A DNA stretch of 64,000 nucleotides from an uncultured Clostridia bacterium (GTDB lineage: Bacteria; Acidobacteriota; Aminicenantia; UBA2199). The notes under the pieces were generated by a model. The model was not told where the DNA came from. It saw only the letters and a program-made list of their open reading frames with translations, and ran no database searches. Shown here in pieces: positions 1,288 to 41,897 of this stretch. The stretch is taken from the NCBI GenBank assembly GCA_964628035.1, contig CAZVPI010000005.1:83048-147047 (forward strand). Reading direction: 5' to 3'. Every line of letters starts with the position of its first letter. Position 1 is the stretch's first letter. Position numbers and translations under genes: made by a program.

Positions 1288-4200
1288 ATGGCCGTTGCAC
1301 GCAAGCCGGGGATCGCCGCGCTCGGGCGCGAGAAGGTCCTCGTCCTCGACGGCGCCATGGGAACGGCCATCATGGCCGCCGCCGCCCCCGAAGACTACCA
1401 CGGCCACGAGGGCTGCCACGACTACATCACCCTCTCCAGGCCCGACATCATCGCCGCCATCCACGCCGCCTACCTGGAGGCCGGCTGCGACATCGTCGAG
1501 ACCAACACCTTCGAGGCCCAGGCCACCGAGCTGGCCAAGCACGGCCTGGGCGAGCGCGCCTACGAGATCAACCGCCGCGCCGCCGAGCTGGCAGCAGGGG
1601 TGGCCGCCGACTTCAGCGGCAGCGGCCGGCCGCGCTACGTGGCCGGATCGATCGGCCCGGGCTCGCGCCTGCCCAGCCTGCAGCAGGTGGGCTTCCGGGA
1701 ACTGGAGGAGTCGTATTATGCCCAGGTGGCGGGACTTTTCGACGGCGGCGCCGACCTGTTCCAAATCGAGACCTGCCAGGACATGCTGCAGGCCAAGGCG
1801 GCGTTGAAGGCCCTGGGCCGCCTGTTCCGCGAGCGCCGCAGGCGGCGGCCGGTCAACCTGCTGGTCACACTGGACAAAAACCGCATGCTGCTGGGGACCG
1901 ATCCGCTGACGGCGCTGGCCACGTTCGCTCCCTTCCCCCTTTTCGCCTTCGGCGTCAACTGCGGCACCGGGCCCGAGGGGATGGCGGAGGCGGTACGCGG
2001 CCTGGCCGGCTCCTCTCCCTTCGCGCTGGCGGTGATGCCCAACGCCGGTTTGCCGCGCTTCCGGGACGGCCGCTATGCCTACGACCTGGAGCCCGAAGCC
2101 TTCGCCCGCCAGATGGAATCCTTCGTCCGCGTCCAGGGGGCGGTTGTCGTCGGCGGCTGCTGCGGATCCACGCCGGCCCACATACGCGCCCTGGCGGCCA
2201 AGGTGGGGGGATTGGCGCCTATGCGGCGCCCGCGCCGGCGCGCGCCGGCTTCCGCCACCTCGCTGTTCGCCAGCCAGGAGTTCCGCGTCGCGCCCAAGCC
2301 GCTGATCATCGGCGAGAGGACCAATGCCAGCGGCAGCAAGGCGTTCAAGCAGGCGCTGCTGGCCGGGGACCTGGAGGCCATGCTGGCGGTGGCCGCCGGC
2401 CAGGAGCGCGAGGGGGCGCATTTGCTCGACCTGAACGTGGCCTATGCCGGCCGCAACGAGGCCGAGGACATGGGGCGCATCGCCGCCCGGCTCAACTCGG
2501 GCTGCCGCCTGCCGCTCATGCTCGACTCGGCCAGCATCCCGGCGCTGCAAGCCGGGCTCGAGTCCTGCGCCGGCAGGGCGGTGATCAACTCGGTCAATCT
2601 CGAGGACGGGGGCGCCCGGGCCGAGGAGATCCTGACCCTGGCCCGGGACTTCGGCGCCGCCGTGGTCTGCCTGGCCATCGACGAGAAGGGGATGGCCAGG
2701 ACCCGCGCCAGGAAGGCCTCTGTGCTGGACCGCCTCCACGACTTGGCCCGGAGCCGTGGACTGCGCTCCCAGGACCTGTTCCTCGACCCGCTGACCTTCA
2801 CCCTGGCCTCCGGCGATCCCGGCCTCGCCGCCGCCGGGGTCGAGACCCTGGCCGCCCTGCCGCTGCTGAAAAAGCGCCTGCCCCGCTGCCATACCCTGCT
2901 GGGGGTCAGCAACGTCTCCTACGGGCTGCAGCCGGCGGCCCGGCGCCTGGTCAACGCCGTTTTCCTGTATCACGCCGTGCAGCGCGGGCTCGATGCCGCC
3001 ATCTTTCACGCCGGCCGCCTCGTGCCCCTGCACCGCATCGAGGCAAGCGAGATCGTCCTGGCGGAAAACCTGATCTTCAACCGCCGCCGCAACGGAGACC
3101 CGCTGCGGGCGCTCATCGGTCATTTTCAGGCCCTGGATGGCAAGCCGGCCGTTGCCCCGGCCAGTGCCCTGACCCCTGGAGAGCGGCTGCGCCAGGCCGT
3201 TCTCAGCGGCGTGGCCGCCGGGCTGGACAGGGACCTGGAGGTCCTGGCCGCCGCCCAGCCGGCGCTGGAGATCGTCAACGGCATCCTGCTGCCGGCCATG
3301 GCCGAGGTGGGGGAGCTGTTCGAGAAGGGGATCATGCAGCTTCCCTTTGTCCTGCAGGCGGCCGAGGTGGTCAAGGCGGCCCTGGACCTGCTCGAACCGC
3401 GCCTGCCCAAGGCCGGGACGGAGGCGCGCGGCTCGATGGTCCTGGCCACCGTCAGGGGCGATGTCCACGACATCGGCAAGAACCTGGTCGACATCATCCT
3501 GCGCAGCAACGGCTACCGCGTGTTCAACATCGGCACCAACCAGGGCGGGGAGGAAATCGCCGCCGCCGTCAGGCGCCACCGGCCCAGCCACGTGGGCCTG
3601 AGCGCGCTGCTGGTCCGCTCCACCCTGGAGATGGAAGGCATCCTGCGGCGGCTGGACCAGGAGGGGATCGGCGTGCCGGTGATCTGCGGCGGCGCCGCCC
3701 TCACCCCTTCGTTCGTCGCCTCGGTGCTGCGCCCGGTCTATCCGGGCGAGGTCGCCTACGCATCCGACGCCTTCTCGGCCATGAAGATCATGGCCGGAGG
3801 CGAAATCCCCATCCGGGATGCCGCCCCTGGGGCGCCGCCCCGGGCGGCGATGCCGGAACCCGTCCTGCCCGCTCCCGCACTGCGCCCGCCGTTCTTGGGC
3901 GCCCGCACGGCCAGCTGGACCCTGCAGGATCTCCTGCCGCGCATCGATCGCCGGGTGCTGGCGCGGGCGCGCTGGCGCATGGAGCCGGGGGAAAAGGCCG
4001 GGCAGTTTCTCGATGATACGCTGGCCTTGCTCGCGGAGAGGGGCATCGACGGGTTTTCCGCCGCCTACGGCTACTTCCCCTGTAGGCGCCATGGCGAGAA
4101 CGGCCTGGCGATCGCATGGGGCGGCGAGGAGTGCCTCCTGGAGTTCCCCAGGCGCCAGGGGCTGTCGCTGGCCGATTACTTCTCCCCGGAGGGCGACACG

Positions 4201-4557
4201 GCGCCCCTGTTGATCGCCAGCTGCGGCCAAGCGCTTACGGCGCTGGAGAAAGAGCTATTCGCCAGCGACCGCTACAGCCGCTACCTGATCCTGCACGGCT
4301 TCGGGGCCGAATTGGCCGAGGCGCTGGCCGCCGCGGCCCACGACCGCATCCGCCGGGAGCTGGGGATCGGCGAAAATCAGGGGAGGAGGTTCAGCCCTGG
4401 GTTCCCGGCCTGGCCCGGGCTGGCCGACCAGAAGGCCATCGCCAGGCTGCTTGATGCCGCCAGAATCGGCGTGAGCGTCAGCCAGGGCGACCAGCTCGTT
4501 CCCGAGCTGAGCGTCAGCGCCCTGGTCGTCTGCCACCCCCAGGCCGAGTATGTCTAG
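1288..4557 (+). CDS. metH: cobalamin-dependent methionine synthase
   Basis: LDGAMGT, GVNCG, GGCCG, IGERTNASGSK, DVHDIGKN B12-binding motif, C-terminal RFSPGFP reactivation domain. Confidence 0.95.
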   Translation: MAVARKPGIAALGREKVLVLDGAMGTAIMAAAAPEDYHGHEGCHDYITLSRPDIIAAIHAAYLEAGCDIVETNTFEAQATELAKHGLGERAYEINRRAAELAAGVAADFSGSGRPRYVAGSIGPGSRLPSLQQVGFRELEESYYAQVAGLFDGGADLFQIETCQDMLQAKAALKALGRLFRERRRRRPVNLLVTLDKNRMLLGTDPLTALATFAPFPLFAFGVNCGTGPEGMAEAVRGLAGSSPFALAVMPNAGLPRFRDGRYAYDLEPEAFARQMESFVRVQGAVVVGGCCGSTPAHIRALAAKVGGLAPMRRPRRRAPASATSLFASQEFRVAPKPLIIGERTNASGSKAFKQALLAGDLEAMLAVAAGQEREGAHLLDLNVAYAGRNEAEDMGRIAARLNSGCRLPLMLDSASIPALQAGLESCAGRAVINSVNLEDGGARAEEILTLARDFGAAVVCLAIDEKGMARTRARKASVLDRLHDLARSRGLRSQDLFLDPLTFTLASGDPGLAAAGVETLAALPLLKKRLPRCHTLLGVSNVSYGLQPAARRLVNAVFLYHAVQRGLDAAIFHAGRLVPLHRIEASEIVLAENLIFNRRRNGDPLRALIGHFQALDGKPAVAPASALTPGERLRQAVLSGVAAGLDRDLEVLAAAQPALEIVNGILLPAMAEVGELFEKGIMQLPFVLQAAEVVKAALDLLEPRLPKAGTEARGSMVLATVRGDVHDIGKNLVDIILRSNGYRVFNIGTNQGGEEIAAAVRRHRPSHVGLSALLVRSTLEMEGILRRLDQEGIGVPVICGGAALTPSFVASVLRPVYPGEVAYASDAFSAMKIMAGGEIPIRDAAPGAPPRAAMPEPVLPAPALRPPFLGARTASWTLQDLLPRIDRRVLARARWRMEPGEKAGQFLDDTLALLAERGIDGFSAAYGYFPCRRHGENGLAIAWGGEECLLEFPRRQGLSLADYFSPEGDTAPLLIASCGQALTALEKELFASDRYSRYLILHGFGAELAEALAAAAHDRIRRELGIGENQGRRFSPGFPAWPGLADQKAIARLLDAARIGVSVSQGDQLVPELSVSALVVCHPQAEYV

Positions 4558-37672: not shown

Positions 37673-38087
37673 GGCTCTCCTCCTCGCTTTCGCCCGCGTC
37701 CCCGCCTTCCCTCTCCTCGCCGCGGTTCTCCAGGCTCTTCTTGCGGATGCGGTCGATCTTGGCCCAGCGCTTGGTCAGCTTGTTGGATTTCTTCAGCTTG
37801 TCGTCCAGGCGCAGGGTGATGAAGCGCAGCACCTTCTCCATCTGCTTCAGGCGCCGCTCCAGGGTGGCGACGACGCCGCCGTCCACCTGCGCCTGCACGA
37901 ACACGTAGTGCCCCTCCAGGTGCTTCTGGATGGGATAGGACAGCTTTTTCCGGCCCCACTCGTCCAGGCCCTCGATGACCCCCCCGGCCTTGGTGAGGAT
38001 CGAGGTGATGGCCTCGACGACCTTCTTGACTTCCTCGTCAGTCGCCTCGGGGGTGACGATGAAGCCGATCTCGTACCTGCTCGTCAT
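37656..38087 (-). CDS. rpsF: 30S ribosomal protein S6
   Basis: [21 protein letters not shown]. Confidence 0.95.
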
Positions 38088-38706
38088 GATTCCTCCTTGT
38101 GGATGGTTTAGCCTCTTCCTGAGGAAGAAGCAAGGAGTTGTTTCTCCTGTTGTATCGATTCATCACGTGATGAATGTCCTCTTGCAGGATGTCCTCGGCG
38201 GCGTCGGCGGCCCGCTCCGCCCCCGCACGCAGGGAGGCCAGCGGCCGGCCGCGCAGCGGCGTGAGCACGTAGCGCACCAGGTCGCCCACCTCGGGCCGCT
38301 CGGGGCGGATGCCGATGCGCAGGCGGGGGAACTCCTGGCTGCCCAGGTGCTGCAGGATCGAGCGCATCCCCTTGTGGCTGCCGGCGCTGCCGCGCTCGCG
38401 CAGGCGCACGCCGCCCAGCGGCAGGTCGATGTCGTCGTAGATGACGAGCAGCTCGCCGGCGTCCAGGTCGAACATGCGCCGCAGCTTGGCCACGGCCTGG
38501 CCCGATTCGTTCATGTAGGTCATGGGCTTGGCCAGGACCACGTCGCGACCGTGCAGCCGGGTCTTGCGGAAGCGCAGCAGGCCCCCCAGCGCGGCCAGCT
38601 CGACGCCATGGCGGCGGCACAGCTCGTCGATGCACAGGAAGCCCGCGTTGTGCGGGGTCTTCTCGTACTTCGCTTCGGGGTTGCCCAGTCCGATGAACGC
38701 AAAAAT
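38038..38706 (-). CDS. pth: peptidyl-tRNA hydrolase, apparent ATT start
   Basis: IGLGNP, TPHNAGF, KPMTYMNESG, YDDIDLP, GSHKG, RLRIGI; AGGAGG 5 nt before ATT at 38706. Confidence 0.9.
   Translation of the reverse strand: MFAFIGLGNPEAKYEKTPHNAGFLCIDELCRRHGVELAALGGLLRFRKTRLHGRDVVLAKPMTYMNESGQAVAKLRRMFDLDAGELLVIYDDIDLPLGGVRLRERGSAGSHKGMRSILQHLGSQEFPRLRIGIRPERPEVGDLVRYVLTPLRGRPLASLRAGAERAADAAEDILQEDIHHVMNRYNRRNNSLLLPQEEAKPSTRRNHDEQVRDRLHRHPRGD
38093..38137 (-). promoter_or_regulatory. structured rpsF leader, S6:S18 autoregulatory-type RNA
   Basis: CTCCTTG/CAAGGAG stem sequesters the SD; inner hairpin GCTTCTTCC/GGAAGAGGC; single-stranded CCA trinucleotides. Confidence 0.55.
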
Positions 38707-39457: not shown

Positions 39458-40411
39458 TCATTTTATCAGGAAAAGTTTGGATACGGAGGTCTCGCGGTGG
39501 ATGCTCTCGATGGCCTGGGCGAACAGCCGCCCCACCGACAGCACCTTGATCTTGGGGCACTCGCTGCGCGGGCAGCGGCGCGGGATGGTGTCGGTGACGA
39601 AGATCGTCTCCAGCGGCGCGGCGTTGATGCGGGCGATGGCCTGGCCGGAGAAGATGCCGTGGGTGCAGGCGGCGTAGATCTTGCGCGCGCCGCGCTCCTT
39701 CAGGGCGTTGATGGTGGCGCTCAGGGTGCCGGCGGTGTCGATGATGTCGTCGACGATGATGGCGTTCTTGCCGCGCACGTCGCCGATGATGTGCATCAGC
39801 TCGGCCACGTTGGGCTGGGTGCGCTTCTTGTCGGCGATGGCCAGGTCGGCGTTGAGCTTGCGGGCGAAGAGCCGCGCCCGCTCCACGCCGCCGGCGTCGG
39901 GGGCGACGATGACCACGTCCCTCAGGTTCATCTGCTTGAAGTGGGAGATGAACACCGGCAGGGCCATGAGGTTGTCCACCGGGATGTTGAAGAAGCCCTG
40001 GATCTGGGCGGCGTGCAGGTCGATGGTCAGCACGCGGGAGAAGCCCGCCGTCTCCAGCAGGTCGGCCAGGAGGCGCGCCGAGATGGCCACGCGCGGCCGG
40101 TCCTTGCGGTCCTGGCGGGCGTAGGCGTAATAGGTGATGACCGCGGTGATGCGCCGGGCCGAGGCGCGCTTGAAGGCGTCGGCCATCAGCAGCAGCTGCA
40201 TGATGTGGAAGTTGCTGTCGGCGCAGAGCGACTGCACGACGAAGACGTCGGCGCCGCGGACGTTCTCGTGGCTCTGGAAGCGGATCTCGCCGTCGGAAAA
40301 GACGTCGAGCACCGATTTCCCGAGGCGGCTGCGCAGGCGGCCGGCGATCTCGCCGGCCAGCTTCTCGTTCGAGGTGCCGGAAAAGATCAGGAACTTGTTG
40401 CCGTTGATCAT
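39458..40411 (-). CDS. prs: ribose-phosphate pyrophosphokinase
   Basis: FSDGEI, YYAYARQDRK, DLHAAQ, APDAGG, VDDIIDTAGT. Confidence 0.96.
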   Translation of the reverse strand: MINGNKFLIFSGTSNEKLAGEIAGRLRSRLGKSVLDVFSDGEIRFQSHENVRGADVFVVQSLCADSNFHIMQLLLMADAFKRASARRITAVITYYAYARQDRKDRPRVAISARLLADLLETAGFSRVLTIDLHAAQIQGFFNIPVDNLMALPVFISHFKQMNLRDVVIVAPDAGGVERARLFARKLNADLAIADKKRTQPNVAELMHIIGDVRGKNAIIVDDIIDTAGTLSATINALKERGARKIYAACTHGIFSGQAIARINAAPLETIFVTDTIPRRCPRSECPKIKVLSVGRLFAQAIESIHRETSVSKLFLIK

Positions 40412-41328
40412 GTGGTTTTCCTGGGGCGGGAGGATTCGAACCTCCGAATCTCGGCTCCAAAGGCCGATGCCTTACCGCTTGGCCACACCCCAATGCTCTC
40501 CTGGTATTGAATTGGGCCGATGAAGCGGGTGAGCAGCGTACCCGGCAGGCGCCGGGCCAGGGCGGACAGCCGCCTGCCGTGGCCGATGGCGAACACCGCC
40601 GCGCCGCTGCCTGTCATCTGCACGAACCCGCCTCCTGCTTGCGCCATTTTTTCCTTGATTTCCCTGATCCGCGGGAACAATTCAAAGGTAACTCGTTCCA
40701 GATCGTTTCGCAATATGGAGAAGTCGCCCTTTCTCAGGAAGAGTTGTATTTTACTGGGAAAAACGGCATTTGTCAAGCGCAGTCGGGAAAAGACCAGGGC
40801 CGTGGAAACGGCCGCCGCAGGCAGGTGCAGGGCGACAGCGCGCGGGCGCAGTGCGGGCAGCGGGGTCAGCTCGTCCCCGATCCCCTCCCCCAGCGCCGTG
40901 CCGCCGAGAAGGAAGAAGGGGACGTCGGCCCCCAGGACCGCGGCCAGGTCGTGCAGCTGCGCCAGGGGGATGCCCAGCCCGAAGTGGCGGTCCAGGAAGC
41001 GCAGCATCACGGCGGCGTTGCCGCTTCCCCCGCCCAGGCCCGCCCCGGGGGGGATGCGCTTGCGCACGCGCACGGTGAAGCCGCGGCGCAGCCGCCAGTT
41101 CTCGGCGAGCAGCCGGTAGGCGCGGGCCATGGTGTTGCGCCCGTCCCAGGGGACGCGCGGGTCGCTGCCGCTCAGGCGCAGCCGCGCCTGCGCGATCTCG
41201 CGCAGTTCGAGGTCGTCGTGCAGGGCCAGGGTCTGGAAGACGGTGCGCAGGGTGTGGTAGCCGTCCGGGCGGCGGCCGGTGATCTCCAGCCCCAGGTTGA
41301 TCTTGGCGTGGGAGCGGAGCCGGATCAC
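40408..41328 (-). CDS. ispE: 4-diphosphocytidyl-2-C-methyl-D-erythritol kinase; ORF extends through tRNA-Gln
   Basis: AKINLGL, GAGLGGGS, GADVPFF, NDLE, MTGSG; GTG start at 41328, first stop at 40408. Confidence 0.92.
   Translation of the reverse strand: MIRLRSHAKINLGLEITGRRPDGYHTLRTVFQTLALHDDLELREIAQARLRLSGSDPRVPWDGRNTMARAYRLLAENWRLRRGFTVRVRKRIPPGAGLGGGSGNAAVMLRFLDRHFGLGIPLAQLHDLAAVLGADVPFFLLGGTALGEGIGDELTPLPALRPRAVALHLPAAAVSTALVFSRLRLTNAVFPSKIQLFLRKGDFSILRNDLERVTFELFPRIREIKEKMAQAGGGFVQMTGSGAAVFAIGHGRRLSALARRLPGTLLTRFIGPIQYQESIGVWPSGKASAFGAEIRRFESSRPRKTT
40421..40492 (-). tRNA. tRNA-Gln(TTG), CCA not encoded
   Basis: TGGGGTG/CGCCCCA acceptor stem, anticodon loop CTTTGGA, GGTTCGAATCC T-arm. 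Confidence 0.93.
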
Positions 41329-41897
41329 GGGCCCAGGACCTCCTCCAGTTCGGCGGCCCGGTAGCGCCTTTCGTAGTCGACCCAGACGAGCCTTCCAGGC
41401 CTGGCCTCGATCTTGAGGAGGCGCAGGGACAGCTCGGCCTCCCCGCGCCGCAGGCGCACCTGCCGCGGCGCGGCCCCGGTCTCGCCCTCCAGCCAGGCCT
41501 CGATGCCGCTTTCGGCCAGGCGCTGCGGCACCCGCCCCTCCAGCAGCAGCGCTTTCAACTCGGCCAGCGGCAGGCCGATGCCCCACAGCCGTCCGAGCAG
41601 GAGGCTGAAATCGCCTTTCCAGTAGGTCCGGGACGAAAAATTGGCCAGCAGCGCTTCCTCGCCGGCCACGGCCAGCTCCAGGCCTGCCTGGTTGAGCGGG
41701 GTGAAAAAGACGAATTTCGATCGCTCGCCGCCGCAGCGCCAGAAGACCCTGCCGCTCTGGCGCTCCCTCCCCTCGCGGAAGGCGAAACGGGCGCTGATGG
41801 CGCGGAAAGAGGGCTCCTCCCCGGGTTCAAGGACCGGCCTGGCTGTCCGGCAGGAGGCGGCCAGAACGAGAAGGAGCAGAAGGAGGGCTGGCTTCAT
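41325..41897 (-). CDS. LolB-like outer-membrane lipoprotein
   Basis: lipobox LAASC; FTPLNQ and WGIGLPL resemble LolB-family segments; lolB-ispE-tRNA-Gln-prs synteny. Confidence 0.55.
   Translation of the reverse strand: MKPALLLLLLVLAASCRTARPVLEPGEEPSFRAISARFAFREGRERQSGRVFWRCGGERSKFVFFTPLNQAGLELAVAGEEALLANFSSRTYWKGDFSLLLGRLWGIGLPLAELKALLLEGRVPQRLAESGIEAWLEGETGAAPRQVRLRRGEAELSLRLLKIEARPGRLVWVDYERRYRAAELEEVLGP

Follow-up and report, generated by a model that had tools for sequence, protein, structure and literature searches.

Introduction

The closest described counterpart of the locus reported here is the gene for tRNA-Sec (selC) nested in the selB open reading frame (ORF) of Alphaproteobacteria, which Mukai described as the first bacterial case of a tRNA nested in an ORF, and for which tRNA processing and translation were proposed to be alternatives (Mukai 2021, Int J Mol Sci 22:4605; PMC8124441). 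The same paper also cites a tRNA-Lys inside cox1 of the mitochondria of Armadillidium vulgare. Here we describe a tRNA-Gln(UUG) gene that lies entirely, and on the same strand, within the ispE ORF ahead of prs in a 64,000-nucleotide (nt) stretch of DNA, hereafter the window, from an uncultured Clostridia bacterium (GTDB lineage Acidobacteriota; Aminicenantia; UBA2199; assembly GCA_964628035.1, contig CAZVPI010000005.1, positions 83,048 to 147,047). A literature search for ispE/tRNA-Gln nesting found no report, and selB-selC was the only precedent found. We regard the locus as a second, independent case, after selB-selC in 2021, of a bacterial ORF that holds a complete tRNA on its own strand, both known from bioinformatic sequence analysis only. 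The nesting is fixed throughout a deep lineage of uncultured bacteria that is common in anaerobic sludge, and it shows that this architecture is no peculiarity of selenocysteine.

The two nestings share a detailed anatomy. In both, a whole same-strand tRNA occupies the 3' end of an ORF and is translated as a C-terminal extension, the host stop overlaps the start of the next ORF, and the trait is conserved but not universal, with relatives that carry a stop inside the tRNA (partial overlap) or restored stops. The selB-selC tRNA is also often without an encoded CCA, as here. Every structural feature of selB-selC nesting is present in ispE/tRNA-Gln, whereas the functional tie between host and tRNA is absent. 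SelB binds tRNA-Sec; IspE is a GHMP kinase of the methylerythritol phosphate (MEP) pathway with no known tRNA-Gln function, and here the tRNA is a housekeeping elongator, while the host genes encode essential metabolic enzymes that are functionally unrelated to it. Three features belong to the ispE case only, namely a sister clade in which tRNA positions U8-A9-G10 serve as the stop, prs always downstream, and a cross-phyla promoter candidate in the host ORF. Moreover, unlike selB-selC, the ispE case spans a whole candidate-phylum-level lineage.

Two other systems bear comparison. As in mitochondrial tRNA punctuation, the tRNA lies in or abuts a coding region of a polycistronic transcript, and its excision truncates the mRNA. 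Mitochondria complete U or UA stops by polyadenylation, whereas here the cleaved end reads …AGCAU and an added A would give AUA; stop completion by polyadenylation was rejected because AU followed by A residues is AUA, not a stop. Unlike mitochondria, the genome here is that of a free-living bacterium and is not extremely reduced. ATGA and GTGA overlaps bring about translational coupling in bacterial operons, and the present locus resembles such operons in its 4-nt stop/start overlap and in a downstream gene usually lacking a Shine-Dalgarno (SD) motif, lolB and ispE being likewise joined by GTGA. Unlike in ordinary ATGA coupling, the ribosome here must unwind and translate a complete tRNA directly before the reinitiation site.

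We propose an explanation that combines a maintained nested gene, a passenger tail, coupling to prs and an embedded promoter, and we give this combination a probability of about 0.6. In this lineage the 3' end of ispE enters a functional tRNA-Gln(UUG) in one fixed frame, with U1 as the third base of a codon; without A9 the UAG is absent, and the frame continues to the UGA that overlaps the prs AUG. According to the explanation, read-through would deliver terminating ribosomes to a prs start 5-15 nt past the tRNA that usually has no SD motif. The tRNA, and probably prs too, would also be transcribed from a strong promoter about 250 nt upstream within ispE, and tRNA supply would then be independent of cutting full-length ispE mRNA.

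Results

A complete tRNA-Gln gene inside the ispE frame

The ispE frame starts at a GTG (41328-41326) and, in the sequence and the ORF list alike, stays open to a TGA at 40410-40408, so that the entire tRNA-Gln(UUG) sits on the same strand within the uninterrupted ORF 41328-40408. An earlier reading of the window without database searches (the sequence-only reading) had stated that ispE has no stop before the tRNA and is open through all 72 nt; sequence, ORF list, ARAGORN and Rfam agree on this. Rfam gives the tRNA 66.2 bits (gathering score 29; E 2.8e-13), and the gene runs from U1 to discriminator G73 with the canonical invariant bases and no encoded CCA. Residues 1-278 of IspE form a canonical kinase, while residues 279-306 are a tail encoded by the tRNA and the spacer behind it. 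The tail reads IGVWPSGKASAFGAEIRRFESSRPRKTT in the window's frame, exactly as the sequence-only reading had written it; the 72-nt tRNA alone translates as GVWPSGKASAFGAEIRRFESSRP and is followed by the 9-nt spacer. Predicted tryptic peptides of this protein include FIGPIQYQESIGVWPSGK, which crosses the junction of core and tail, and ASAFGAEIR within the tail. The RNase P cut site is predicted within ispE codon 279. Cleavage there would produce an ispE mRNA without a stop codon, as the sequence-only reading had proposed and as the known chemistry of RNase P implies.

We considered whether the arrangement could be an artefact, through an error of sequencing or assembly, a wrongly assigned frame or a tRNA that is only a pseudogene, and found this to be barely conceivable. 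The identical 306-residue IspE is indexed in 56 blocks of public assemblies, with 24 contigs read, and the 5,001 bases around the site showed zero differences in four run assemblies. The tRNA has its high score and all canonical features, with compensatory changes among relatives. In addition, all three frames are open from about 40530 to the tRNA. A base error or frameshift near the tRNA, which the sequence-only reading had raised against itself, is ruled out by the identical independent assemblies together with the lack of a stop just upstream in any frame.

The tail was present in 117 of the 120 best homologues, at identities from 100% to 47%, the other three being partial or disrupted. The first homologue search was word-based and could favour the tail; this bias was controlled by a tail-less query, by an index-free search of 50%-identity representatives, and by loci gathered from core-only patterns. 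With the tail removed from the query, every full-length match down to about 47% identity still read through the tRNA, and the first proteins ending at the UAG of positions 8-10 appeared at about rank 107. In the index-free search, tails were confined to the nearest 50%-identity clusters, which marks read-through as a clade-specific trait. An open frame across one tRNA is by itself not improbable by chance, because two of the three frames of the window's tRNA-Gln are stop-free, in a genome of about 70% GC; it is the conservation that exceeds chance. We conclude that the nested gene is real and has been maintained during the evolution of a monophyletic lineage, Candidatus Aminicenantes and allies. 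Named relatives are few, being Candidatus Aminicenantes or Acidobacteriota metagenome-assembled genomes (MAGs), and the runs containing the window's sequence are sludge and bioreactor samples.

This bears on annotation. Proteins of about 306 residues annotated as ispE with a '…WPSGKAS.FGA.IRRFESSRP…' tail are not miscalls, and pipelines that forbid overlap of a coding sequence with a tRNA truncate or drop ispE in these genomes.

A stop codon supplied by the tRNA, and its loss

To trace the origin of the overlap, we used 160 ispE loci, half of them from species genomes and half from metagenomes (80 each), all fetched by patterns of the kinase core only, and counted a tRNA-Gln as downstream if it lay on the same strand within 800 nt of ispE. 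A tRNA-Gln(UUG) met this definition in 94 of the 160 loci, in phyla and groups that include Acidobacteriota, Desulfobacterota, Nitrospirota, Elusimicrobiota, KSB1 and Burkholderiales. The ispE stop lies before the tRNA in 70 of these 94 loci, with gaps of 0-574 nt. In 14 loci the stop is the UAG formed by U8-A9-G10 of the tRNA, entered in the window's frame; in three it is a UAA in the D-loop, again in the window's frame; one uses a D-loop UAA in another frame; and in the remaining six the ispE frame is open through the whole tRNA. The sequence-only reading had asked whether orthologues stop before the tRNA: close ones do not, whereas distant ones do so in the 70 loci and stop inside it in 18.

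The single locus with the D-loop UAA in another frame belongs to the cultured Pyrinomonas methylaliphatogenes K22 (NZ_CBXV010000004.1, tRNA-Gln at 3425-3499 of the locus sequence), where the UAA occupies tRNA positions 19-21. This organism offers a tractable cultured acidobacterium for work on the ispE/tRNA overlap.

In the window's frame, U8-A9-G10 is the only stop that tRNA-Gln can supply. With A9, as in the sister clade, ispE terminates three codons into the tRNA. The window has G at position 9, giving UGG (Trp282), and its relatives have C9 (Ser) or U9 (Leu). In a neighbour-joining tree of the kinase cores, a rough tree built on 278 columns, the read-through proteins (118 leaves) were monophyletic and their sister was the clade with the UAG at positions 8-10. 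This monophyly and sister relation indicate that the two clades are alternative states of one ancestral overlap. Parsimony on the same tree counts at least 21 changes of position 9 within the clade, all between G, C and U and none to A, and A9 was absent from all 118 members, although A9 functions in the sister clade with the same D-stem. The data suggest a simple evolutionary route in which a universal tRNA triplet, U8-A9-G10, served as a stop codon and was then lost, and G9 versus A9 provides a natural single-base contrast.

Position 9 was also compared across the wider set of loci. A9 occurred in 15 of 18 tRNAs whose U8-A9-G10 ends ispE, versus 9 of the 70 where ispE stops earlier; in the latter, position 9 was C in 48, G in 10, A in 9 and U in 3. 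A9 may therefore be held in place by the overlapping stop codon, with shared ancestry a possible contributor.

Tail substitutions follow tRNA base pairing

Among orthologues, the nested tRNA-Gln shows compensatory stem covariation at pairs 27-43, 6-67 and 31-39, and this pattern is visible in the tail. At pair 27-43, codon 27-29 encodes Ser or Pro (U27 or C27) and codon 42-44 encodes Glu, Asp or Gly (A43 or G43); Ser was combined with Glu or Asp 105 times and Pro with Gly nine times, while Pro with Glu or Asp was found 0 times. Similarly, at pair 6-67, C6 (Ala) never occurred together with A67 (His). An AlphaFold2 model computed from a 54-sequence alignment gave residues 1-281 a predicted local distance difference test (pLDDT) score of about 90, whereas residues 282-306 scored below 50 and were modelled without secondary structure. 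IspE chains of solved structure have 271-284 residues.

Since the covariation follows the tRNA stems and the tail is predicted to be disordered, the 28-residue tail appears to be a passenger peptide whose sequence is set by the tRNA and not by IspE function. The opposite view, in which the tail would be a functional C-terminal extension of IspE serving in localisation, oligomerisation or as a degron, can appeal to the high conservation of the peptide; this conservation, however, is that of the tRNA, and the substitutions track its base pairs. Frame-shifted versions accompany a one-base difference in the variable loop, the model assigns the tail low confidence and no structure, and the sister clade and all other IspE proteins have no such tail. 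We therefore consider a functional tail highly improbable.

The frame-shifted versions are found in relatives P0280, P0284, P0286, P0288, P0298 and L175, whose tails read …FGADTTEVRILPPQ… and in which the 3' half of the tRNA is translated in another frame. A one-base difference in the variable loop apparently switches the frame of the distal tail (…TTEVRILPPQ…). The ORF of these frame-switched relatives still ends just before prs.

Read-through and the start of prs

The state of the ispE stop goes together with the design of the region between the tRNA and prs. In read-through loci, the median spacer from tRNA to prs is 9 nt (5-15 nt in 13 of 14) and an SD-like motif is absent in 9 of 14. Where the stop lies inside the tRNA, as in the sister clade, the median spacer is 38 nt and an SD-like motif is present in 15 of 17; where it lies before the tRNA, the corresponding values are 69 nt and 16 of 55. 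Start-codon and SD calls in the distant loci come from simple rules, and the spacer range comes from the 14 read-through loci with a located prs start. Two further loci, L173 and L174, were looked up later; their spacers measure about 42 and 23 nt, and both are open in frame and keep the ATGA.

The position of the stop is just as regular. In all 14 main-clade loci with DNA sequence, ispE stops on or next to the prs start, through eight ATGA overlaps (among them the two behind spacers of 23 and 42 nt), three 8-nt overlaps and three stops 2-15 nt upstream. The ATGA overlap of ispE and prs described in the sequence-only reading is thus present in the window (40411-40408) and conserved among relatives. 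In the window, the ATG at 40411-40409 is the only possible prs start, and the Pfam Pribosyltran_N match begins at residue 8. The structural signs of a coupled gene pair are all found, with a stop/start overlap and no SD motif in 9 of the 14 read-through spacers, the window itself having a weak AGGA. The sequence-only reading had also stated that prs has no SD motif, which holds within the 9-nt spacer and fails just beyond it, where this AGGA (40422-40419) straddles the 3' end of the tRNA.

Given the stop/start geometry, the short SD-less spacers and the lack of any change to A at position 9, we favour coupling: read-through is most likely kept by selection for ribosomes that terminate at the prs AUG, that is, for termination-reinitiation coupling. 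The translational coupling suggested by the sequence-only reading agrees with these comparisons of spacer length and SD presence with ispE stop state.

A different account would take the arrangement as a neutral by-product of packing, in which drift at a free tRNA position removed the internal stop, the cell tolerates the tail, read-through has no function and prs is initiated on its own, for example from an A-rich unstructured leader or a processed transcript. Gaps between ispE and the tRNA do form a continuum, from 574 nt to 0 and then into overlaps, and sporadic independent read-throughs without fixed geometry occur in other phyla; the frame of L034 ends 599 nt inside prs, and that of L006 continues into prs without a break. 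Position 9 varies in tRNA-Gln generally (counts given above), and the tail is predicted to be disordered. Drift, however, sits poorly with the lack of A9 throughout the 118-leaf clade even though position 9 changed at least 21 times, with a stop that adjoins or overlaps the prs start in 14 of 14 loci and does so even behind spacers of 23 or 42 nt, and with the tight tie between read-through and short SD-less spacers when 15 of 17 sister-clade loci have an SD motif. We regard the neutral account as possible, although on the unlikely side.

Locus L006 (Aminicenantes MAG PFL34, about 3361-4412) is a single continuous ispE-tRNA-prs ORF that runs to the prs stop. It has C9, a 51-nt spacer in frame and a prs with its own SD motif.

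A promoter-like site written in ispE codons

Within ispE, upstream of the tRNA, lies a sigma-70 promoter-like site with 11 of 12 consensus matches, the only such match in 4.5 kb where 0.3 would be expected. Transcription from it is predicted to begin near 40741, about 250 nt ahead of the tRNA. Its -35 hexamer encodes the invariant Leu185-Thr186 by codons that are rare in this genome, at 3% and 7% of their synonymous sets, and its -10 hexamer falls in the codons AGT, AAA and ATA (Ser-Lys-Ile), at 2%, 22% and 4% of theirs. The same codons carry a motif with at least 10 of 12 matches in 81 of the 102 loci where a tRNA-Gln lies downstream and in 26 of the 44 where none does; overall this amounts to 107 of the 146 loci with enough sequence, compared with 5 of 855 random windows (0.6%). 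In most loci, 246-400 nt separate the -10 hexamer from the tRNA.

The site lies in a low-GC island (codons about 171-235) of 45-47% GC between flanks of 70-79%, where the GC content at third codon positions (GC3) drops from about 1.0 to 0.5-0.65. This low-GC3 island suggests that the nucleotide sequence is constrained beyond what the protein requires. It was also considered as a feature of the read-through clade and is not clearly one, the sister clade being similar to about codon 228. From its conservation across phyla, the embedded site is probably a tRNA-Gln/prs promoter written in ispE codons, and such a promoter would explain the long-lived linkage of ispE and tRNA-Gln.

Escherichia coli offers a parallel. 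It shares the gene order lolB-ispE-prs, although no tRNA lies between ispE and prs there, the gap being 150 nt behind a normal ispE stop. Work of the Hove-Jensen and Switzer laboratories reportedly placed the E. coli prs promoter inside ispE, with a leader of about 302 nt. In E. coli MG1655, ispE contains a promoter-like site (TTGATG, 18 nt, TAGAAT) 308 nt before the prs ATG, a distance that agrees with a leader of that length. Positional homology with this site is not supported, as it falls at codon 222 there versus 185 here; the two are analogous only.

Processing, translation and the RNA runs

The sequence-only reading, like Mukai for selB-selC, had proposed a regulatory competition, in which one transcript can either have its tRNA folded and excised by RNase P/Z or serve for the translation of ispE and prs. 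Selection would then favour the arrangement for making the output of IspE and Prs, and with it isoprenoid and phosphoribosyl pyrophosphate (PRPP) synthesis, depend on tRNA processing, and IspE from cleaved mRNA would be tagged by transfer-messenger RNA (tmRNA). The conflict is unavoidable on any full-length ispE transcript, which would be cut within codon 279, and the same model was put forward for the only known precedent (PMC8124441). Yet if the conserved embedded promoter is active, the tRNA and prs need not come from ispE mRNA, which would reduce the assumed competition; it is real only for full-length ispE transcripts. IspE and tRNA-Gln also have no functional link, unlike SelB and tRNA-Sec. 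Furthermore, the sister clade, with its UAG inside the tRNA, faces the same conflict and nevertheless has an SD-driven prs, so the conflict fails to explain why read-through specifically was kept. Regulatory competition as the selected function consequently appears quite unlikely. An attenuation-like sensing through CAA (Gln) codons before the tRNA was considered as well and rejected, since the CAA codons are not conserved in GC-rich relatives.

A variant of coupling starts from Met228. Residue 228 is Met in 115 of 122 read-through proteins and in 0 of 18 sister-clade and 0 of 23 outgroup proteins, all 41 of which have Phe, Ile or Leu. Its codon is the first in-frame AUG past the predicted transcription start and would open a 79-codon ORF that runs through the tRNA to the prs AUG. 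Tentatively, then, and with a distinctly low likelihood, the last 79 ispE codons and the nested tRNA-Gln could act as a translated leader for prs, launched by the promoter at codons 185-194. The SD-like motif before Met228 is not conserved in AT-rich relatives, and the low-GC island, being shared with the sister clade, does not discriminate for or against an internal start there. If the leader interpretation were true, tRNA excision would destroy the coupling, and output of PRPP synthetase would be gated by the order of translation and processing, a built-in switch between a tRNA and an enzyme feeding nucleotide synthesis.

Several points weigh against the combined explanation that we prefer. 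The absence of A9 may partly reflect single ancestry, and the rough neighbour-joining tree may inflate the count of changes at position 9. Short spacers alone could reflect compaction and not function. Some clade members (L167, L171 and L173) have an SD motif in the spacer, so coupling is not strictly required everywhere, and the weak AGGA of the window lies 7 nt before the prs ATG. A transcript begun at the embedded promoter would receive no ribosome from the ispE start, and coupling on it would need an internal start such as Met228, which is speculative. Lastly, the public runs labelled as RNA, available as contigs only, are either DNA-like or cover the locus at 2-15x depth.

Among these runs, X1-X4 are labelled metatranscriptomic and consist at the locus of 33-57 kb contigs with flat coverage of about 25x; they behave as DNA and are unsuitable as expression evidence. 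Runs X10, X11 and X14 contain contigs of 150-220 nt across the ispE/tRNA and tRNA/prs junctions at 2-6x depth, which are compatible with co-transcription but no proof of it. In X11, which is a true RNA-seq run, contigs occur only downstream of 40673, at a depth of 2-4x, whereas other runs cover upstream regions too.

Feature coordinates and neighbouring genes

The features of the locus are collected in Table 1. Downstream of prs follow rplY (39456-38716), pth and rpsF, all on the minus strand in a compact operon.

Table 1 Features of the lolB-ispE-tRNA-Gln-prs locus in window positions
Feature	Position	Strand	Basis or remark
lolB (lipoprotein)	41325..41897	-	Pfam LolB, E 1.8e-10; sequence
ispE ORF, 306 residues	40408..41328	-	Pfam GHMP_kinases_N and _C
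Low-GC, low-GC3 island, codons about 171-235	40624..40818	-	Spans embedded promoter-like site down to Met228
Sigma-70 promoter-like site, TTGACA, 17 nt, TAAAAT	40748..40776	-	11/12 matches
Met228 ATG, candidate internal start, preceded by AAGGAAAAA	40645..40647	-	Putative use as a start
Junction codon 279 AUU (Ile279), third base = tRNA U1	40492..40494	-	Sequence; Rfam alignment
tRNA-Gln(UUG), 72 nt, anticodon 40460-40458	40421..40492	-	ARAGORN; Rfam
tRNA positions U8-G9-G10 read as UGG (Trp282)	40483..40485	-	Comparison with sister-clade UAG
9-nt spacer GAAAACCAC, tRNA discriminator to prs ATG	40412..40420	-	Sequence
ATGA, prs start codon overlapping ispE stop	40408..40411	-	Sequence
prs (ribose-phosphate pyrophosphokinase)	39458..40411	-	Pfam Pribosyltran_N, E 3.7e-50, and others

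At the upstream end of ispE, the TGA of lolB (41327-41325) overlaps the ispE GTG as GTGA. This GTGA (41325-41328) has GGAGGAGG 11 nt upstream, and 4-nt overlaps connect the whole lolB-ispE-(tRNA)-prs chain.

Further downstream, the region directly upstream of rpsF (38082-38153, minus strand) gave a sub-threshold match to the Rfam RpsF leader, with 22.4 bits against a gathering score of 37 and E 0.22. Its position directly upstream of rpsF suggests a divergent but real S6:S18 autoregulatory leader.

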